Of a DNA stretch of 64,000 nt, positions 5,492 through 11,733 are shown piece after piece (within the stretch, counting starts at the first letter, position 1; the number at the start of each line of letters is the position of its first letter). The stretch lies in contig PLYO01000031.1 in NCBI GenBank assembly GCA_003151825.1, positions 4,096-68,095 on the forward strand, written 5' to 3'. A program made the translations under genes and the position numbers. The notes beneath the pieces are model-generated. The model ran no database searches. It worked only from the letters and a program-made list of their open reading frames with translations, and was not told the origin of the DNA. The DNA is from Ignavibacteriota bacterium. GTDB taxonomy: Bacteria > Bacteroidota > Ignavibacteria > Palsa-1295.

Positions 5492-6262
5492 ATGCAAACC
5501 ATCGTCATTATCCCTGCGCGCTATGCATCCCAGCGGCTGCCCGCCAAACCGCTCGTCCTCATTCATGGCATGACGATGATCGAGCGCGTCTATCGACAAT
5601 GCCAGCACGCGGAGGAGATCGATGCCATTTATGTCGCGACCGATCACCCGGCAATCGTTCAGGAGGTCGAGCGATTCGGGGGCCGCGCCATTATGACTTC
5701 TCCGGATTGCCCATCCGGCACGGATCGTGTCGCCGAAGCTGCGGCGAAGCTAAATCTTGACAAAAATGATATTATCATCAATGTGCAGGGCGATGAGCCG
5801 CTGATCGATCCTGCGGTCATCACCGCGTTAGCGAGTCAGATGCGAGTGCATCCGGAAATACGGGTCGCTACTCCGGTCACGCCGCTTCGGCACGCGGAGG
5901 ATCTGACAAATCCGAACATTGTTTTTGCAGCGAAGAATAAGAACTGCGACGCGCTGTATTTTTCAAGACATCCTATTCCCTTCCTCAGGGAACTTGGCGC
6001 CGAGGCCGTTCTATCGTGGCCAAAACAGCATCTGTACTTTAAACATATTGGCGTGTATGCCTATCGCGCGGAAGTATTGCAACAATTCATCGCGCTTGGC
6101 GAAAGCCCGCTCGAACGCGCCGAACGCCTCGAACAACTGCGGTTATTAGAAGCAGGAATTCCGATTCGATGTATCGAAGTTCAGCACGAATCGGTCGCAG
6201 TGGATACCATCCAGGATGTGCGGGGAGTCGAACTGCTGATCGAGGAACGGGGACTCGCATGA
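5492..6262 (+). CDS. kdsB: 3-deoxy-manno-octulosonate cytidylyltransferase
   Basis: IPARYASQRLPAKPL, SGTDR, NVQGDEP, LEQLRLLE. Confidence 0.95.
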   Translation: MQTIVIIPARYASQRLPAKPLVLIHGMTMIERVYRQCQHAEEIDAIYVATDHPAIVQEVERFGGRAIMTSPDCPSGTDRVAEAAAKLNLDKNDIIINVQGDEPLIDPAVITALASQMRVHPEIRVATPVTPLRHAEDLTNPNIVFAAKNKNCDALYFSRHPIPFLRELGAEAVLSWPKQHLYFKHIGVYAYRAEVLQQFIALGESPLERAERLEQLRLLEAGIPIRCIEVQHESVAVDTIQDVRGVELLIEERGLA

Positions 6263-7380
6263 CCATCGAGCAAGCCCGACGCGAATTTCCGCACACCATG
6301 AGCGACATGGTGTATCTCAATCATGCCGCCGTCGCGCCGCTTTCGTTCCGCGTGCGTGACGCCGTCGATCGCTACCAAACGCGGCGCGCGCTGAAAGGCA
6401 TCGAACCGTATCCCTGGATCATGAAAACCGTGCAGGAAACGCGCGAGCTGCTCGCGCAAATGCTGCACGCCCGCGCCGATCAGATGGCGTTCGTGCTTAA
6501 TACCAGTGATGGATTGAATATCCTCGCGCAAGGCATCGCTTGGAAACCCGGCGACCGCGTTTTGCTCAATGATTTGGAATTTCCCGCGAATGTGTATCCG
6601 TTTTTGAATCTTCAGAGACAGGGCGTTGAGGTTGATGTTATTCGTACAAAGGACGCAAAGGTCACAAAGGACGAAATTGCTGAGAATTTGACGGAGAAAA
6701 CGAAACTTGTTTCACTCAGCCATGTGCAATTTGCTACGGGTGCGAAAGCCGATCTTACTGCTATCGGCAAACTTTGTAGAGAACGCGATATTCTCTTCGC
6801 TGTCGATGCGATACAATCGCTTCCCCACTCAGAAATTGATGTCCAGCGCGACAATATAGATTTTCTTTCATCGGGTTCCCACAAATGGATGATGGCCGAT
6901 ACCGGAGCTGCATTTATCTACGCCGGCGACCGCGCCCTCGAACGTATTCATCAAGCCTCGCTTGGATGGACGAGCATTGATGATCCCTTCGACTTTACAC
7001 TGCGTCCTGATGAACTCCGTACCGGCGCTGCGCGATTCGAAAACGGCACGCTGAATTTCGCCGGCATCACCGCGCTGAATGCCTCGCTAAAGTTCTTCTT
7101 TGAATTTGGACTAAAAGAAATAGAACGCAATGTGCTCGATCTTTCTGGCTATCTTATCAACCGCCTACAACAGCGCGGCGTGGAAGTAATTACGCCAAAA
7201 GACGAGCGTGAGCGCGCGGGAATCGTTTCCTTCAATTTTCCCGATGCAGAAAAAGTATTCGAGCGATTGCACAAGCAAAATATCATTATCTCGCTCCGCC
7301 AGGGCCGCCTCCGCGTTTCCCCCCATTTTTATAATACGGAGGAGGAGTTGAGGAAGCTGATGGTGGGGTTGTTTGAGTAA
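6259..7380 (+). CDS. Class V PLP-dependent aminotransferase / cysteine desulfurase-like
   Basis: YLNHAA, VDAIQS, SHKW and LRVSPHFYNT motifs. ATGA overlap with kdsB. Confidence 0.9.
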   Translation: MTIEQARREFPHTMSDMVYLNHAAVAPLSFRVRDAVDRYQTRRALKGIEPYPWIMKTVQETRELLAQMLHARADQMAFVLNTSDGLNILAQGIAWKPGDRVLLNDLEFPANVYPFLNLQRQGVEVDVIRTKDAKVTKDEIAENLTEKTKLVSLSHVQFATGAKADLTAIGKLCRERDILFAVDAIQSLPHSEIDVQRDNIDFLSSGSHKWMMADTGAAFIYAGDRALERIHQASLGWTSIDDPFDFTLRPDELRTGAARFENGTLNFAGITALNASLKFFFEFGLKEIERNVLDLSGYLINRLQQRGVEVITPKDERERAGIVSFNFPDAEKVFERLHKQNIIISLRQGRLRVSPHFYNTEEELRKLMVGLFE

Positions 7381-7551
7381 GAATGACGAGTTAGTGCCAC
7401 TCCTTGACTTGAAGCATTATCACTTGCACCGAGTCATAAACACGAATGCCTTTTTGCGGATTTAGAAGTTCGATGATCGCATTGTTCCGGTGCAAGGATG
7501 GATTTATACCGTAATGCTATGAGTTATGAGATTTAGTAAGGAACAAAAAAT

Positions 7552-8202
7552 ATGATCGAGACTCCTGAGGTTAAGCCTAATAAAAAAGGAAAGCGTGTAA
7601 TCATTATATTACTCGGCTTTTTTCTCTTTCTTTGCATTATTGTGATCTTTGCATCGAATCAGAGCGAAAAGCCTACTCAACCTAATTCTACCACTTCCGC
7701 ACCACACGCGTTCGTTCCCTACTCACCACCTCCTCCCTCCTCCGAACCAAATCCTACTCCTACGCCGGTTGTTGACGAAGGAAGATGGAGTTATAATGCG
7801 AGCTATGATCAGATGCGCCAGATAACGACTGTTTTCGCAACGCTCGAAAGTAGCTCAATCCTAAATTTTGATTTCCCTTATAATGGAGGAGCAACACCAT
7901 CAATACAGTTAAGGAAGGAAGGCAATGGCAGCAGCGAAGCTATGCTGAAGATTGATAAGGGTCAGTTTATGACGAGCTATGACGGAACTCGCATTGCTGC
8001 AAAGGGAGATAATGGGCCAGTTCAATATTTTGAAGGAGATGAGTCAGCTAACGGACGGAGCGACATTCTTTTCATCGAACCTGCATCCAGATTGATTGCG
8101 CTGCTCAAAAAAAGTGCCCATGTAACTTTAGAGGCTCCCTTTTATGAAGCTGGGCGCATCCAAATGGAATTTGAGACCACGGGTCTTGTGTGGCCTCCCT
8201 AG
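7552..8202 (+). CDS. Membrane-anchored hypothetical protein (cassette 1)
   Basis: N-terminal TM helix, Pro-rich linker, globular C-domain; more AT-rich than neighbours. Confidence 0.8.
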   Translation: MIETPEVKPNKKGKRVIIILLGFFLFLCIIVIFASNQSEKPTQPNSTTSAPHAFVPYSPPPPSSEPNPTPTPVVDEGRWSYNASYDQMRQITTVFATLESSSILNFDFPYNGGATPSIQLRKEGNGSSEAMLKIDKGQFMTSYDGTRIAAKGDNGPVQYFEGDESANGRSDILFIEPASRLIALLKKSAHVTLEAPFYEAGRIQMEFETTGLVWPP

Positions 8203-8225
8203 GCGACTCAATAGTAGAATATAGT

Positions 8226-8291
8226 TCACCCCATCCCCTGCCGCTTGTGCAGATATTCCAGCCCGCTGCGGCGGGCGCGGTGAAGCGGAAC
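8226..8291 (-). repeat. Copy R1 of the DUF58 gene 3' tail
   Basis: TCACCCCATCCCCTGCCGCTTGTGCAGATATTCCAGC versus 10828ff: 3 mismatches in 37 nt. Confidence 0.9.
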
Positions 8292-8320
8292 TGTTACGGC
8301 TGCTTAATTGCTAAACCATC

Positions 8321-8539
8321 ATGAGATTATCTGTTCAATACGTAAATGACGTGCAGGGAAACGTTCAGGCGGTGCAAGTGCCCGTCGGCGAATGGAAGCG
8401 GCTTTTAAAGTCGATGCGAGGTTTGGAGCAGCGGCTGAAGCTGAAATCAGACCTGACGGAGGCGCTTGCGGAGGTCGAACGAAAACGCGCCGGCAAACAG
8501 AAAATGGAGTCGCTGGACGAATTTCTCCGTGCCTTATAG
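8321..8539 (+). CDS. Putative antitoxin
   Basis: 72 aa, overlaps the toxin start, ends LDEFLRAL. Confidence 0.75.
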   Translation: MRLSVQYVNDVQGNVQAVQVPVGEWKRLLKSMRGLEQRLKLKSDLTEALAEVERKRAGKQKMESLDEFLRAL

Positions 8540-8861
8540 CCTTAGCCCGACGGAACGGTTCAAGCACGAAGCGAAGCGGCTGATCAAAAAATATCGGTCG
8601 CTGACTTCGGAGTTACAAGAACCCTCGGAATTGCTCAAAAGCGATCCCCATCTTGGGCAAGACCTCGGTGCTGGATTATTTAAGATCCGGCTCGCCATTC
8701 AAAGCAAAGGAAAAGGAAAAAGTGGAGGAGCGCGAGTTGTGACTTATGTGATTGATAAAGACAAGGTCGTGCATCTTCTCACAATTTATGATAAAACCGA
8801 GCTTGATACGATCAGCACCCAGATTTTACGAGAGATTGCTCACGAAATTACCGAAAAATAA
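8529..8861 (+). CDS. RelE/HigB-like type II toxin
   Basis: GTG start; KKYRSL, KIRLAIQSKGKGKSGGARV, LLTIYDK. Confidence 0.85.
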   Translation: MPYSLSPTERFKHEAKRLIKKYRSLTSELQEPSELLKSDPHLGQDLGAGLFKIRLAIQSKGKGKSGGARVVTYVIDKDKVVHLLTIYDKTELDTISTQILREIAHEITEK

Positions 8862-8921
8862 TAATTGTCCAATTCCCCAAAAATAAATTAGCGTAATCCA
8901 TACAATCCGCGTAATCCAGGT

Positions 8922-8988
8922 TCACCCCATCAACTGCCGCTTGTGGAGATATTCGAGCAGCGCCGCGACGGGCGCAGTGGAAGGAAAC
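8922..8988 (-). repeat. Copy R2 of the DUF58 gene 3' tail
   Basis: 38 of 39 nt identical to 10828-10866. Confidence 0.92.
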
Positions 8989-9008
8989 TAAGATTTTGCG
9001 TAAGTGTT
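8984..9008 (+). promoter_or_regulatory. ECF-type promoter-like motif GAAAC-N16-TGTT
   Basis: Starts at the end of R2 and ends 9 nt before ATG 9018. Confidence 0.45.
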
Positions 9009-9017
9009 ATAAACGGT

Positions 9018-9230
9018 ATGAGCACAAAGACGGTATCTAAAACACGCGGCTTAAAGGAGCGCTCGCGGAAATCTCCAAATGGCCGGAGTCCGCGTACCAC
9101 TGCCTCGCTATGGGAAAAAATTGACGAATTAATCGCTCCCATCCCCGCATCGGAATGGTCGAAACTCCCTAAGGATGGTTCCGTTAACGTTGACCATTAC
9201 CTCTATGGCGCTCCGAAGCATCAGCCTTGA
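9018..9230 (+). CDS. Putative antitoxin
   Basis: Small ORF ending LPKDGSVNVDHYLYG, overlapping the PIN gene. Confidence 0.75.
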   Translation: MSTKTVSKTRGLKERSRKSPNGRSPRTTASLWEKIDELIAPIPASEWSKLPKDGSVNVDHYLYGAPKHQP

Positions 9231-9643
9231 TGCAGTATTTTGAAGATACCGGCTTTTGGATCGCTCGGCTCTCACGCAGCGACCAATGGCATACACAAGC
9301 TGTAGCTATTAGCGGAAGCTTCCAGCCATCCGACCGATTCTTTACCTCGGATTTCGTTCTGCTTGAATTGTTAAATTATTTTTCAACAGCGGGTTCATTG
9401 CTTCGCTTGAAATCTTCTACTATCGTTGAGGAGATCGAGAATGATCCTCACCACCGCATTCTTTCTACTTCATCAGAACACTTTCGCGAGGCTCGAAAAA
9501 TGTATGAGCGTCATTCCGACAAAGCATGGAGCCTAACCGACTGCTCTTCTTTCCAGCTGATGCGCGAACTCGGCATTCAGAATGCTCTCACGTTCGATCA
9601 TCACTTCGAGCAAGCCGGATTCCGAACGATACCCGGAATATAG
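9227..9643 (+). CDS. VapC-type PIN-domain toxin
   Basis: F-E-D-T N-terminus, VLLE, SLTDCSSF, LTFDHHF. Confidence 0.9.
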   Translation: MMQYFEDTGFWIARLSRSDQWHTQAVAISGSFQPSDRFFTSDFVLLELLNYFSTAGSLLRLKSSTIVEEIENDPHHRILSTSSEHFREARKMYERHSDKAWSLTDCSSFQLMRELGIQNALTFDHHFEQAGFRTIPGI

Positions 9644-9648
9644 AGAGC

Positions 9649-9669
9649 TTATCCGTCAACACTGCTTGT
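9649..9669 (-). repeat. Degenerate copy R3 of the DUF58 tail
   Basis: TTATCC-GTCAAC-ACTGCTTGT versus TTATCCCATCAACTGCCGCTTGT, 5 nt after the PIN stop. Confidence 0.4.
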
Positions 9670-10071
9670 CCTACAGAAACATACTGCGCTTCTGCCTTCA
9701 GTGATTGAATAAACATGCCACTCTCAAGCTTTATGACAGGGTACTGAGGGATTTTATAGCTATTCTATGCGATTTCTGATAGAATAAGGGATTATTTAAT
9801 AAAAAAGCAAAATTTCTATAAGAAAGCGAAACATTTATCGTTTTTATGCGTATAACCCAATTGCGAGCGTTGAGAGTGTAAACAGACCGCTGCCAGTACA
9901 GGCATGTATGATCCCTGCACAATGAAATCAAATGGCGCACTGGGGGCAATTCAAAAAGTCCTGCGCGGGTCTACCCTTAGCTTAGGAGACATTAGTTGCC
10001 GTGTTCTTTGAAAATGTATTGTGGCCTGTTGTAGTGTACTTTACGACAGGACTAAAATGATTGGAACGGAC

Positions 10072-10141
10072 TTATCCCATCAACTGCCGCTTGTGGAGAT
10101 ATTCCAGCAGTGCGCGGCGGGCGCGGTCGAAGGGCGTGAAC
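10072..10141 (-). repeat. Copy R4 of the DUF58 gene 3' tail
   Basis: Minus strand reads TPFDRA-RRA-LLEYLHKRQLMG*; all 5 differences in the first 45 nt are synonymous or stop-preserving. Confidence 0.92.
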
Positions 10142-10175
10142 CCAATCCTTGCGCTCATTCGTTAAGTCAAACAGC

Positions 10176-10532
10176 ATGAAACAAGCTTATCGCCAAACGC
10201 CTGCGCCAACGCACTCGCCGAAGAATCCGCGAGTGCAAACAGCGCGCGCGGTAAAAGCGAGACGAAAGCAAACTGTTTCGACTCCGAACGGTTCTCTTGC
10301 CGTTGATTCCACTATCCCTCGTTCGTTCGTGCCGATCTGGGAGATAAGTGAACAGGAACGCGAGAAAATTCGCAAAGACCTTGTCATTGGCCTCAAGGAG
10401 ATGAATGACCTTTATCTTGAGGAATCAAAAGCTTGGTATCCACTCGAAGAAGAAGTGTATGAAAAGTCAATTCGAAACGCTGGGCCGGGGCGACCTCATA
10501 CGAGTCGTCCTCGATCCCGTAAGAGGGCATGA
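10176..10532 (+). CDS. Putative antitoxin partner of MazF
   Basis: Upstream of and overlapping the PemK/MazF gene; acidic C-terminal part. Confidence 0.65.
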   Translation: MKQAYRQTPAPTHSPKNPRVQTARAVKARRKQTVSTPNGSLAVDSTIPRSFVPIWEISEQEREKIRKDLVIGLKEMNDLYLEESKAWYPLEEEVYEKSIRNAGPGRPHTSRPRSRKRA

Positions 10533-10824
10533 ACAATCGGGAATCCGCCCCGCTGTTGTTCTCTCGCCACTACTGATCAATGAGTTTTCCAGTACGATCT
10601 TAGTTGCCGCTTTAACCAGCAAGCGGCTCGATCGAATTTTATCTGTTGAAGTTCTGATCGAAGCGCCGGAAGGTGGTTTAAGATCGGATTCCAAAGTGCT
10701 TCTTCTTCAAATTCGATCGATCGACAAGAGTCGAATCATCGGCACATACGGCTCCTTGACTCAAGACACCATGAACCGAGTCGATCAAGCCCTCGCCATT
10801 GCGACAGGATTGCTGAAGCTATAA
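10459..10824 (+). CDS. PemK/MazF family toxin
   Basis: RGD..V.LDPVRGHEQSGIRPAVVLS, QIRSIDKSRI. Confidence 0.92.
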   Translation: MKSQFETLGRGDLIRVVLDPVRGHEQSGIRPAVVLSPLLINEFSSTILVAALTSKRLDRILSVEVLIEAPEGGLRSDSKVLLLQIRSIDKSRIIGTYGSLTQDTMNRVDQALAIATGLLKL

Positions 10825-10827
10825 CTC

Positions 10828-11733
10828 TCACCCCATCAACTGCCGCTTGTGCAGATATTCGAGCAGAGCGCGATCGAATGGCGTGGTGGTTTCGAGAAGC
10901 AGGTAATCAATCCCTTCGGCGATGAGGGAATCTTTCAAAGTTCCGAGGAATGCTTCTACCGATTTCTGATAGCTTGCCTGCATCTGGTATGGCTGGGTGC
11001 GAATTTGCTCGCCGGTTTCAATATCAACAATCGTAGCGTCGGCGGTTTCCAGTTCTAAGGTTCGTTCGGCGGGATCGAGCACTTGAAATGCAATGACTTC
11101 ATGTCCGGCATGTTGCATGAGCGAAAGCGGGAGCTTTATTTGGTCCGGCTCGTCTAAAAAATCGCTGATTACGATGACAAGTCCACGCCGCGTAAGTCGT
11201 TCGGCCACGCGGCGGAGCGCGGTTTCGGTGCGCGTGGCGTGCGATGGTTCCGTCGTTTGCAGCACACGCAGCATCTCCCGCAAATAACTTTGCTTGAGCC
11301 GCGCCGGCATGAAGGTGCGAAGCTCCTCATCGAAAATCGCGAGGCCAACAGCGTCTTGCTGTCGCATGAGCAAATATGCAAGCGCGGCGGCGAGCATTGT
11401 CGCGTACTTATATTTTGTAATGCGTTTCGGATCGCTCGTGTAATTCATCGAGCGAGAAGCATCGACGATAATATGCGCCTTGAGATTCGTTTCCTCTTCG
11501 TATTGCTTGATGTAATGCCGGTCGGTACGCGCGAAAAGTTTCCAATCTATATTGCGGATGGCATCGCCCGGCAAATAGGGACGGTGCTCCGCAAACTCGA
11601 CGGAAAAACCATGATACGGCGATTTATGCAAACCCGTAATAAATCCCTCCACCACGAATTTCGCGACCAGCTCCATCGAGCCGAGATTGGATGCGATTTC
11701 GGGTCGGAGATATTCGGTGGATTCGTCGGCCAT
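10828..11733 (-). CDS. DUF58 (vWA-like, MoxR-associated) protein
   Basis: GLHKSPYHGFSVEFAEHRPY..GD..R.IDWK, IKQYEEE, ISDFL. Confidence 0.92.
   Translation of the reverse strand: MADESTEYLRPEIASNLGSMELVAKFVVEGFITGLHKSPYHGFSVEFAEHRPYLPGDAIRNIDWKLFARTDRHYIKQYEEETNLKAHIIVDASRSMNYTSDPKRITKYKYATMLAAALAYLLMRQQDAVGLAIFDEELRTFMPARLKQSYLREMLRVLQTTEPSHATRTETALRRVAERLTRRGLVIVISDFLDEPDQIKLPLSLMQHAGHEVIAFQVLDPAERTLELETADATIVDIETGEQIRTQPYQMQASYQKSVEAFLGTLKDSLIAEGIDYLLLETTTPFDRALLEYLHKRQLMG

Follow-up and report, generated by a model that had tools for sequence, protein, structure and literature searches.

The 3447-bp gap between the convergent genes for a class V aminotransferase and a DUF58/vWA protein in the genome of an Ignavibacteriota bacterium (assembly GCA_003151825.1) holds in its entirety an array of small gene cassettes, in which toxin-antitoxin (TA) pairs are set apart from each other by copies of the last codons of the neighboring DUF58 gene. 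The array lies in a stretch of 64,000 nucleotides (nt) of contig PLYO01000031.1 (positions 4,096 to 68,095 of the forward strand), referred to at its full length as the window. The DUF58 site is a hot spot, and the array of TA cassettes between tail copies is real. Tail-only copies of the same kind are also found downstream of many other genes of this genome, and they differ from the corresponding working gene ends mostly by synonymous changes. The best reading of these observations, to which we assign a probability of roughly 45%, is that tails are displaced by homologous recombination, in the manner proposed for Rhs toxin tips. In what follows, positions are those of the window unless a contig (C number) or a locus (L number) is named; G000 is the genome carrying the window (a 3.59-Mb assembly of 51 contigs with 6.6% contamination), and the other G numbers and the L numbers designate genomes and loci of its relatives. 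The region is composed as follows:

6169-7380, + strand: class V aminotransferase gene (Pfam Aminotran_5, E 1e-55), the conserved left flank
7552-8202, + strand: gene for a hypothetical 216-amino-acid (aa) protein, 'u0', variable cargo with a tail copy on its right side only
8226-8290, + strand: R1, displaced DUF58 tail copy, with the complement of the stop codon at 8226-8228 and a 9-nt insertion in the right arm
8321-8861, + strand: RelB-like antitoxin (8321-8539) and RelE-family toxin (open reading frame, ORF, from 8466, likely GTG start at 8529)
8886-8918, + strand: dispersed REP-like motif of 13 nt, present twice, where the RelBE unit ends
8922-8985, + strand: R2, displaced DUF58 tail copy
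9018-9643, + strand: putative antitoxin (9018-9230, no family) and PIN-domain VapC toxin (9230-9643; Pfam PIN, E 1e-11)
about 9649-9690, + strand: R3, degenerate tail remnant, placed by its position relative to locus L035
about 9766-10062, + strand: copy of a dispersed repeat of about 300 nt, formerly taken for an ORF-poor unit
10072-10147, + strand: R4, displaced DUF58 tail copy with a TAA stop and a 9-nt insertion, reaching about 19 codons into the gene sequence
10176-10824, + strand: MazE-like antitoxin (10176-10532, no family) and MazF/PemK toxin (10459-10824; Pfam PemK_toxin, E 1e-26)
10828-11733, - strand: DUF58 (vWA-like) gene (Pfam DUF58, E 5e-53), with its working tail at 10828-10890

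An earlier note on this DNA, made from the letters of the window, had proposed that copies of the DUF58 gene tail space the TA cassettes, and this is borne out by a search with a 29-nt core taken from the end of the gene, using shuffled sequences as controls. The core occurs on the + strand at 8230, 8926, 10076 and 10832 (the last being the real tail), with 2, 0, 0 and 0 mismatches, respectively; none are expected from the shuffles, and these four are the only core copies in the entire genome. On the strand of the DUF58 gene, the last 12-19 codons of the protein and a stop can still be read in the three extra copies. R4 differs from the real tail by four codon changes in the last 13 (TGA>TAA, GGG>GGA, CTG>CTC and CTC>CTG) and by GCT>GCA just upstream, and R2 differs by CTG>CTC and GCT>GCG; every one of these changes is synonymous, as the earlier note had stated. 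The status of R3 as a degenerate tail is less secure: its comparison with the tail scores no better than shuffles, although it stands directly after the VapC stop, where the relative L035 has a recognizable tail, and, with one gap, some 75% of its first 30 or so bases align to the tail by eye. No tail-like sequence follows the aminotransferase stop in the window or in 11 of the 12 other loci, a degenerate tail being present in only 1 of the 13 (L044). The stretch just to the right of each copy, its right arm, travels with the cargo on its right, and RelBE, VapBC and MazEF keep their own arms across genomes and array positions.

The pattern is not confined to DUF58. The last 45 nt plus stop codon of all 5693 ORFs of G000 encoding at least 120 aa were screened for a same-strand copy 20-8000 nt downstream with dissimilar flanks; segments whose ends lie 150 or 300 nt before the stop served as controls. 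Tail-only copies were found downstream for 25 of the 5693 tails (17 of them within 1 kb), compared with 4 (1 within 1 kb) and 3 (2 within 1 kb) for the two sets of controls. TA-type genes are enclosed at 11 of the 17 loci within 1 kb, namely HigB/HTH, ParE, HicA, nucleotidyltransferase (MNT)/HepT, PIN (three loci), MazF together with DUF3368/UPF0175, DUF4258/DUF2283, DUF2283 alone and the DUF58 array itself; the remaining six comprise loci with a 259-aa ORF, with a copy of the dispersed repeat or with small unnamed ORFs, and loci not inspected further. Among the host genes are some that, from their termini, we take to be dnaK-like, rpoN-like and enolase-like. The duplicated stretch measures 31-77 nt, and its right edge falls within -7 to +3 nt of the stop codon in all cases except one. 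Since tail copies stand behind many genes, a DUF58-specific attachment site is not their general cause. Their distribution in relatives is patchy, the rpoN-like tail being duplicated in 2 of 14 genomes, that of a 481-aa gene in 3 of 13 and the dnaK-like one in 2 of 13, and the cargo behind the dnaK-like gene differs between G000 and G005. Note also that this strict screen catches a minority of the toxins of G000 (about 2 of 8 PemK and 3-4 of 27 PIN matches).

Other loci with more than one unit were encountered as well. In a second multi-cassette array of G000 (C47:51394-53344, L242), a 261-aa gene precedes a MazF pair and then a DUF3368/UPF0175 pair, each of which is followed by a tail copy, and in G005 (C29:63168-64642, L245) the rpoN-like gene is followed by a unit of about 600 nt, a tail copy and then the HicAB-like cassette of G000, forming a two-unit array. 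Further ORFs of G000 have two or three tail-only copies downstream, spaced by 230-3400 nt (C30:33612-37386; C50:162332-164169, with a PIN gene; and C40, 63071-63455 on the reverse strand). At C20:67134-69296, the dispersed 300-nt repeat forms the end of the insert that separates the tail of a 249-aa gene from its copy, and a PIN gene lies after the copy, so that this array may continue past it.

The differences between tails and copies are informative. In 14 ungapped pairs outside DUF58, 41 changed codons are synonymous and 19 non-synonymous, four of the pairs standing at 6:0, 6:0, 3:0 and 2:0, and stop codons are often swapped for other stops between tail and copy. At the DUF58 loci the count is 29 synonymous to 22 non-synonymous over 14 copies (R3 and the copy of G014, which contain indels, being left out), and for the five well-kept copies it is 14:0. 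Changes at random would be expected to be non-synonymous in about three-quarters of cases. The mostly synonymous differences thus indicate that the two members of a pair each formed the working end of the gene at one time, in different lineages; the copies being alleles, one member came from outside, either with the cassette or by later allelic exchange. For the 481-aa gene, the working tail and the copy both lie inside the range of the genus alleles, and the dnaK-like pair is identical at 45 of 45 positions.

DUF58 orthologues are present in 41 of 41 related genomes, and none of the 14 other genomes of the genus lacks the gene. The empty site is seen in three other genera of the family, in which the flanking genes abut with gaps of -4, 9 and 27 nt. 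Within the genus, the gap measures 667-2760 bp in nine genomes (3447 bp in the window), synteny being broken or the contig ending in four of the 13. Extra tail copies occur in 6 of 13 genus genomes (two in G009 and one each in G006, G014, G005, G007 and G003), and also in three further metagenome contigs (two in L064, one each in L065 and L135). Across these loci, the tail-bounded cargo comprises VapBC, two MazEF types, RelBE, a ParE pair and, in L064, an inverted YefM-YoeB pair. The same cassettes (RelBE, VapBC and both MazEF types) recur in different array contexts: a RelBE cassette with 85.5% identity adjoins DUF58 in the metagenome locus L065, and a VapBC homologue with the same left arm is found in L035. 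The aminotransferase-proximal unit differs in nearly every genome, containing GmrSD, Mrr-like nucleases, ankyrin-repeat proteins or secreted proteins, and the position of u0 has non-homologous content in every relative. Type IV restriction-like genes were observed in this unit (GmrSD and Mrr_cat; L038:9304-11277 and L065:1286-2464), making the site a hot spot for defense genes too.

The supposition of the earlier note that the newest cassette is the one beside DUF58 is not supported by the evidence. Wherever MazEF is present, it occupies the DUF58-proximal position, and it is probably old, as it is no less diverged between G000 and G003 (78.7% identity) than DUF58 itself (78.7%; 74.2% for the aminotransferase gene); the decay of the copies is also unordered along the array, R3 being the worst preserved and R2 the best. 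G000, G009, G006 and G014 have left-most copies whose left halves are orthologous and whose right arms and cargo differ. In G009, a hybrid tail combines the left half of R1 with the right arm of the VapC cassette, and in G014 the working DUF58 tail has the left flank and the TAA stop of R4. Such hybrid tails show that tails have recombined with each other by tail-to-tail crossovers, gain and loss not being distinguishable in the individual case. Two contigs from different lineages, whose flanking genes are 76-87% identical, share a MazEF cassette at about 95-97% identity, and the identity falls at the tail. Exchange of DNA between lineages at the DUF58 locus is real.

As regards the cargo of the window, all genes are on the + strand and the units are compact, with one repeat per cassette. 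The RelE match is just above its cut-off (27.3 bits vs. 27) and the RelB-like Pfam match (E 0.0013) is below its own; in general, the antitoxins of the three pairs have a weak family match or none. Judged from their sequences, the three pairs fit type II TA modules, being small operons of two genes whose toxin belongs to a known family. The MazE-like and MazF ORFs share 74 nt (10459-10532) in different frames, and this overlap is kept in G003 (L047). The u0 protein has no Pfam or NCBIfam match. Out of the five cassettes that had been counted initially, three stand as TA cassettes; the ORF-poor unit turned out to be nothing other than the dispersed repeat (about 9766-10062), which has 48 matches in the genome, and u0 is without a tail on its left.

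A dedicated recombinase was looked for and none was found. The recombinases of G000 are XerD (above the equivalog cut-off), a XerC-like protein, one 368-aa integrase and one serine recombinase, all encoded on other contigs, and its three tyrosine recombinases score 123, 71 and 45 bits on the integron integrase model TIGR02249, compared with a cut-off of 265. No recombinase ORF occurs within the arrays at 13 loci of the genus and 3 from metagenomes, which leaves room for a transient helper. The 368-aa integrase (contig C27) was considered as the array recombinase and dismissed, having no close homologue in G009, G014, G005, G003 or G007 and a homologue of 45% identity in G006. For the four repeats, folded on both strands in search of an attC-like structure, z-scores against shuffles ranged from -0.96 to +0.38, and the R''/R' consensus of attC sites was not seen by eye in the repeats. 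No other tail-like site was found in 15 genomes, apart from two chance-looking matches with 2 mismatches and one match in a fragmented assembly, and no end motifs are shared among the cassettes. A viral carrier was likewise discarded: of the 2 exact pattern matches in IMG/VR neither is near a DUF58 gene, and none lies on a viral contig beside a recombinase. With a dozen different targets and so few recombinases, a single site-specific recombinase cannot account for the tail copies.

How, then, could the cassettes have come to stand behind their host genes? The anatomy matches that of the model of C-terminal displacement proposed for Rhs genes by Jackson et al. (2009; PMC2935791). In this model, recombination between gene-end fragments frees a circle that carries one fragment and the intervening genes, and a second recombination, with an intact gene in another cell, inserts this circle, the new end completing the gene and the old end being shunted downstream. 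By tail displacement of this kind, a TA cassette would travel with a copy of the last 10-25 or so codons of the core gene that precedes it. The DNA would arrive in a related cell as a small circle or a tail-flanked fragment and would recombine with the resident tail; the incoming tail would complete the gene, whereas the resident tail would be pushed downstream, where it would stay as a silent copy. Repeated events of this type, together with deletions and exchanges from tail to tail, would have built and reshuffled the DUF58 array, and the TA pair itself would resist loss. We infer that the joining activity would be RecA-type recombination of the host, with circles or tail-flanked fragments as intermediates. 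The variable length of the duplicated stretch (31-77 nt) is what the Rhs circle model predicts (PMC2935791).

Several points weigh against tail displacement. It leaves unexplained how the initial duplication came about at each of at least a dozen genes. Some repeats measure only 31-33 nt, which is near the lower length limit for RecA recombination. The cassettes are very compact, the cargo starting 3-70 nt after the stop and ending 3-13 nt before the copy, and they look designed rather than accidental. In most DUF58 copies, the right arm contains a common 9-nt in-frame insertion, absent from all working DUF58 tails, which calls for either a common ancestor copy or a function; the insertion may mark a common ancestral copy or belong to the promoter region of the antitoxin. 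In the MazEF pair with 95-97% identity, the right arm of the copy lies outside the near-identical tract, which points to an exchange inside a resident cassette and not to a tail-mediated insertion. No excision joint or circle was found in the contigs of four runs, which carries no weight either way, since the contigs are of low depth and drop rare variants. Finally, ComEC and DprA are present, but they are nearly universal and therefore not discriminating.

The alternatives to tail displacement are of very different merit. A false tail-cassette-tail path, created by a metagenome assembler that joined strain variants, might be suspected from the 51 contigs and 6.6% contamination of the assembly and from the dispersed repeat inside the array, but we consider it extremely improbable. 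The array is supported across its junctions: Logan contigs bridge R1 (runs X1, X3 and X6), R2 (X3), the R4 core (X6) and the MazF/DUF58 junction (X1 and X3) with 0 differences, the bridging runs being three peat metagenome samples from three studies, one of which may be the source sample of the genome. The listed contig pieces do not span the junction between R3 and the repeat (9625-9765), and the dispersed repeat draws pieces from its other copies. Comparable arrays are also present in the 6 other genus genomes and the 3 further metagenome contigs mentioned above, and synteny is conserved on both flanks. There is little to recommend, too, a site-specific integration or accretion in which attachment sites mimic the gene tail, a tyrosine recombinase acts in trans (from a helper element or as XerCD) and the cassettes are remnants resembling cis-mobilizable elements (CIMEs) or integron-like units. 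There is good documentation for tandem accretion at target-gene 3' ends (PMC5704250); moreover, the right arms travel with the cargo, most of them share the 9-nt insertion, and the core shows a weak dyad symmetry by eye. Yet tail duplication affects at least a dozen different genes of a genome with three tyrosine recombinases and one serine recombinase, none of about 16 loci contains an integrase, neither an integron integrase nor an attC-like fold was detected, secondary sites and a viral carrier are both lacking, and the extent of the DUF58 tail copies varies between 36 and 58 nt at this single gene. Decay without ongoing gain, in which the ancestor of the genus had a full array and the present genomes hold subsets of it left by tail-to-tail deletion, strikes us as improbable, yet it is still a serious rival. 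It agrees with the colinear order of the cassettes in all loci, MazEF always being proximal, with the orthology of the left-most copies in G000, G009, G006 and G014, and with a divergence of cassettes similar to that of their flanks (RelBE 85.5% vs. 83%; MazEF type 1 78.7% vs. 78.7%). It leaves the origin of the array and the other dozen loci unaccounted for, and it is at odds with the restriction of ParE, YoeB and other cargo to single lineages, with the different dnaK cargo of G000 and G005, with tail alleles that differ only synonymously and with the one cassette that is far more similar than its flanks.

A more serious contender, although we still think it unlikely, is a sequence-independent insertion at gene ends accompanied by a target duplication of 30-80 bp, for instance through staggered breaks or through template switching in repair or replication; only insertions sparing both neighbors would survive, and later allelic recombination would produce the synonymous differences. 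The geometry fits, the order being copy, insert, copy and native continuation with the insert starting within -7 to +3 nt of the stop, and so do the identical dnaK pair, the many unrelated genes affected and the compactness of cassettes that have no common end motifs. However, no prokaryotic element is known to make duplications of such length and variability. No candidate enzyme was found either (no TnpB and few recombinases), a silent copy should decay mainly non-synonymously whereas 41 of 60 changed codons are synonymous, and the clearly mobile dispersed 300-nt repeat is without such duplications in 21 of 22 copies. We would also tentatively entertain that the TA cassettes are distinct integrase-free selfish elements that use the gene tail as a portable homology arm, or else that an unknown process duplicates 30-80 bp precisely at stop codons; either way, core-gene tails would be landing pads on which repeated hits would build arrays.

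Comparison with known systems helps to place the array. Rhs loci, and also those of MafB and CdiA, resemble it in having an intact gene followed by variable-length fragments of its own 3' end with genes between them, exchange being limited to close relatives (PMC2935791). They differ in that the displaced ends are non-homologous toxin tips, whereas here the same residues are encoded and the tail is only a handle; the cargo here is an autonomous TA pair, often convergent, and the targets are ordinary core genes (DUF58, dnaK-, rpoN- and enolase-like), many per genome, with repeats of only 31-77 nt. The accretion of integrative elements and CIMEs (PMC5704250) is similar in that direct repeats with the 3' end of the target gene flank the units, the gene stays intact and TA cargo is common. 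In the present case there is no integrase, relaxase or decayed remnant per unit, the units measure 0.4-0.8 kb, and many targets contrast with very few recombinases. Rhs tip displacement and accretion at gene 3' ends are the closest kinds, and the array belongs to neither of them, since a defining feature of each was tested and is absent here. Integrons and clusters of attC sites lacking integron-integrases (CALINs) have in common with the array compact and mostly co-oriented cassettes, repeats of about 60 nt, TA cassettes (reported from chromosomal integrons, PMC13108822) and the presence of the same cassette in different contexts. They are set apart by IntI and the attC hairpin, both missing here, by a repeat that is here a piece of neighboring coding sequence, and by the occurrence of one array for each of many genes instead of one platform. 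The description of the array as integron-like in the earlier note thus holds for its layout and for the co-orientation of the window cargo, and gives way as to IntI, the attC fold and the YefM-YoeB pair, which is inverted in L064. Minimal mobile elements of Neisseria are variable cassettes between conserved genes, without mobility genes, that are exchanged by homologous recombination; they match the variable aminotransferase-proximal unit and differ from the tail-bounded units in that two different flanking genes serve as arms and no duplicated gene end is left. In arrays of integrative mobile elements exploiting Xer (IMEX) at dif, integrase-less elements pile up, a functional site is restored beside the chromosome and degenerate sites lie between the elements; here the target is not dif-like, and the targets are many and different. 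In the full-text literature (without subscription journals and supplements), we found no description of TA cassettes flanked by a copy of the end of a neighboring core gene.

Two kinds of dispersed repeats are interspersed with the cassettes. The repeat of about 230-300 nt has 48 matches in G000 (also at C41:33631-33946, C23:3947-4235 and about 45 more places), 22 in G014 and 12 in G002, and none or weak ones in the other 11 genus genomes. In an alignment of 15 copies, its core is highly conserved, with one helix showing apparent compensatory changes and with an optional insert of about 55 nt in some copies; on this basis, the repeat looks like a miniature inverted-repeat transposable element (MITE) or a multi-copy structured RNA. 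A search of Rfam with window positions 7000-11500, at E up to 1, gave no family, long flanking duplications surround only 1 of 22 copies, and an origin from TnpB/IS605 was set aside because the genome has no PF07282 match. The REP-like 13-mer ATCCGCGTAATCC, often followed by AGGTTC, has 131 matches in G000 at no more than 1 mismatch, usually paired about 19 nt apart, with inverted pairs 110-180 nt apart, and it lies just downstream of DUF58 in several relatives. It was examined as a possible cassette arm and ruled out, as it is a genome-wide repeat.

How chromosomal TA and defense genes move without a nearby transposase or integrase is an open question, and many core-gene hot spots are without a known mechanism. 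The scars described here are unusually legible, as each cassette has beside it a silent allele of its neighbor's end; this holds for at least a dozen loci of one genome and for several genes when the genus as a whole is considered. The order, decay and allele identity of the displaced tails constitute a natural record of past transfers. The gene tail as a homology handle is moreover a testable model, and any genome can be searched for its signature, namely a tail-only copy no more than 1 kb downstream. If this is true, a portable tail arm would let a cassette home behind a core gene in any related genome by means of host recombination, whatever lies downstream.

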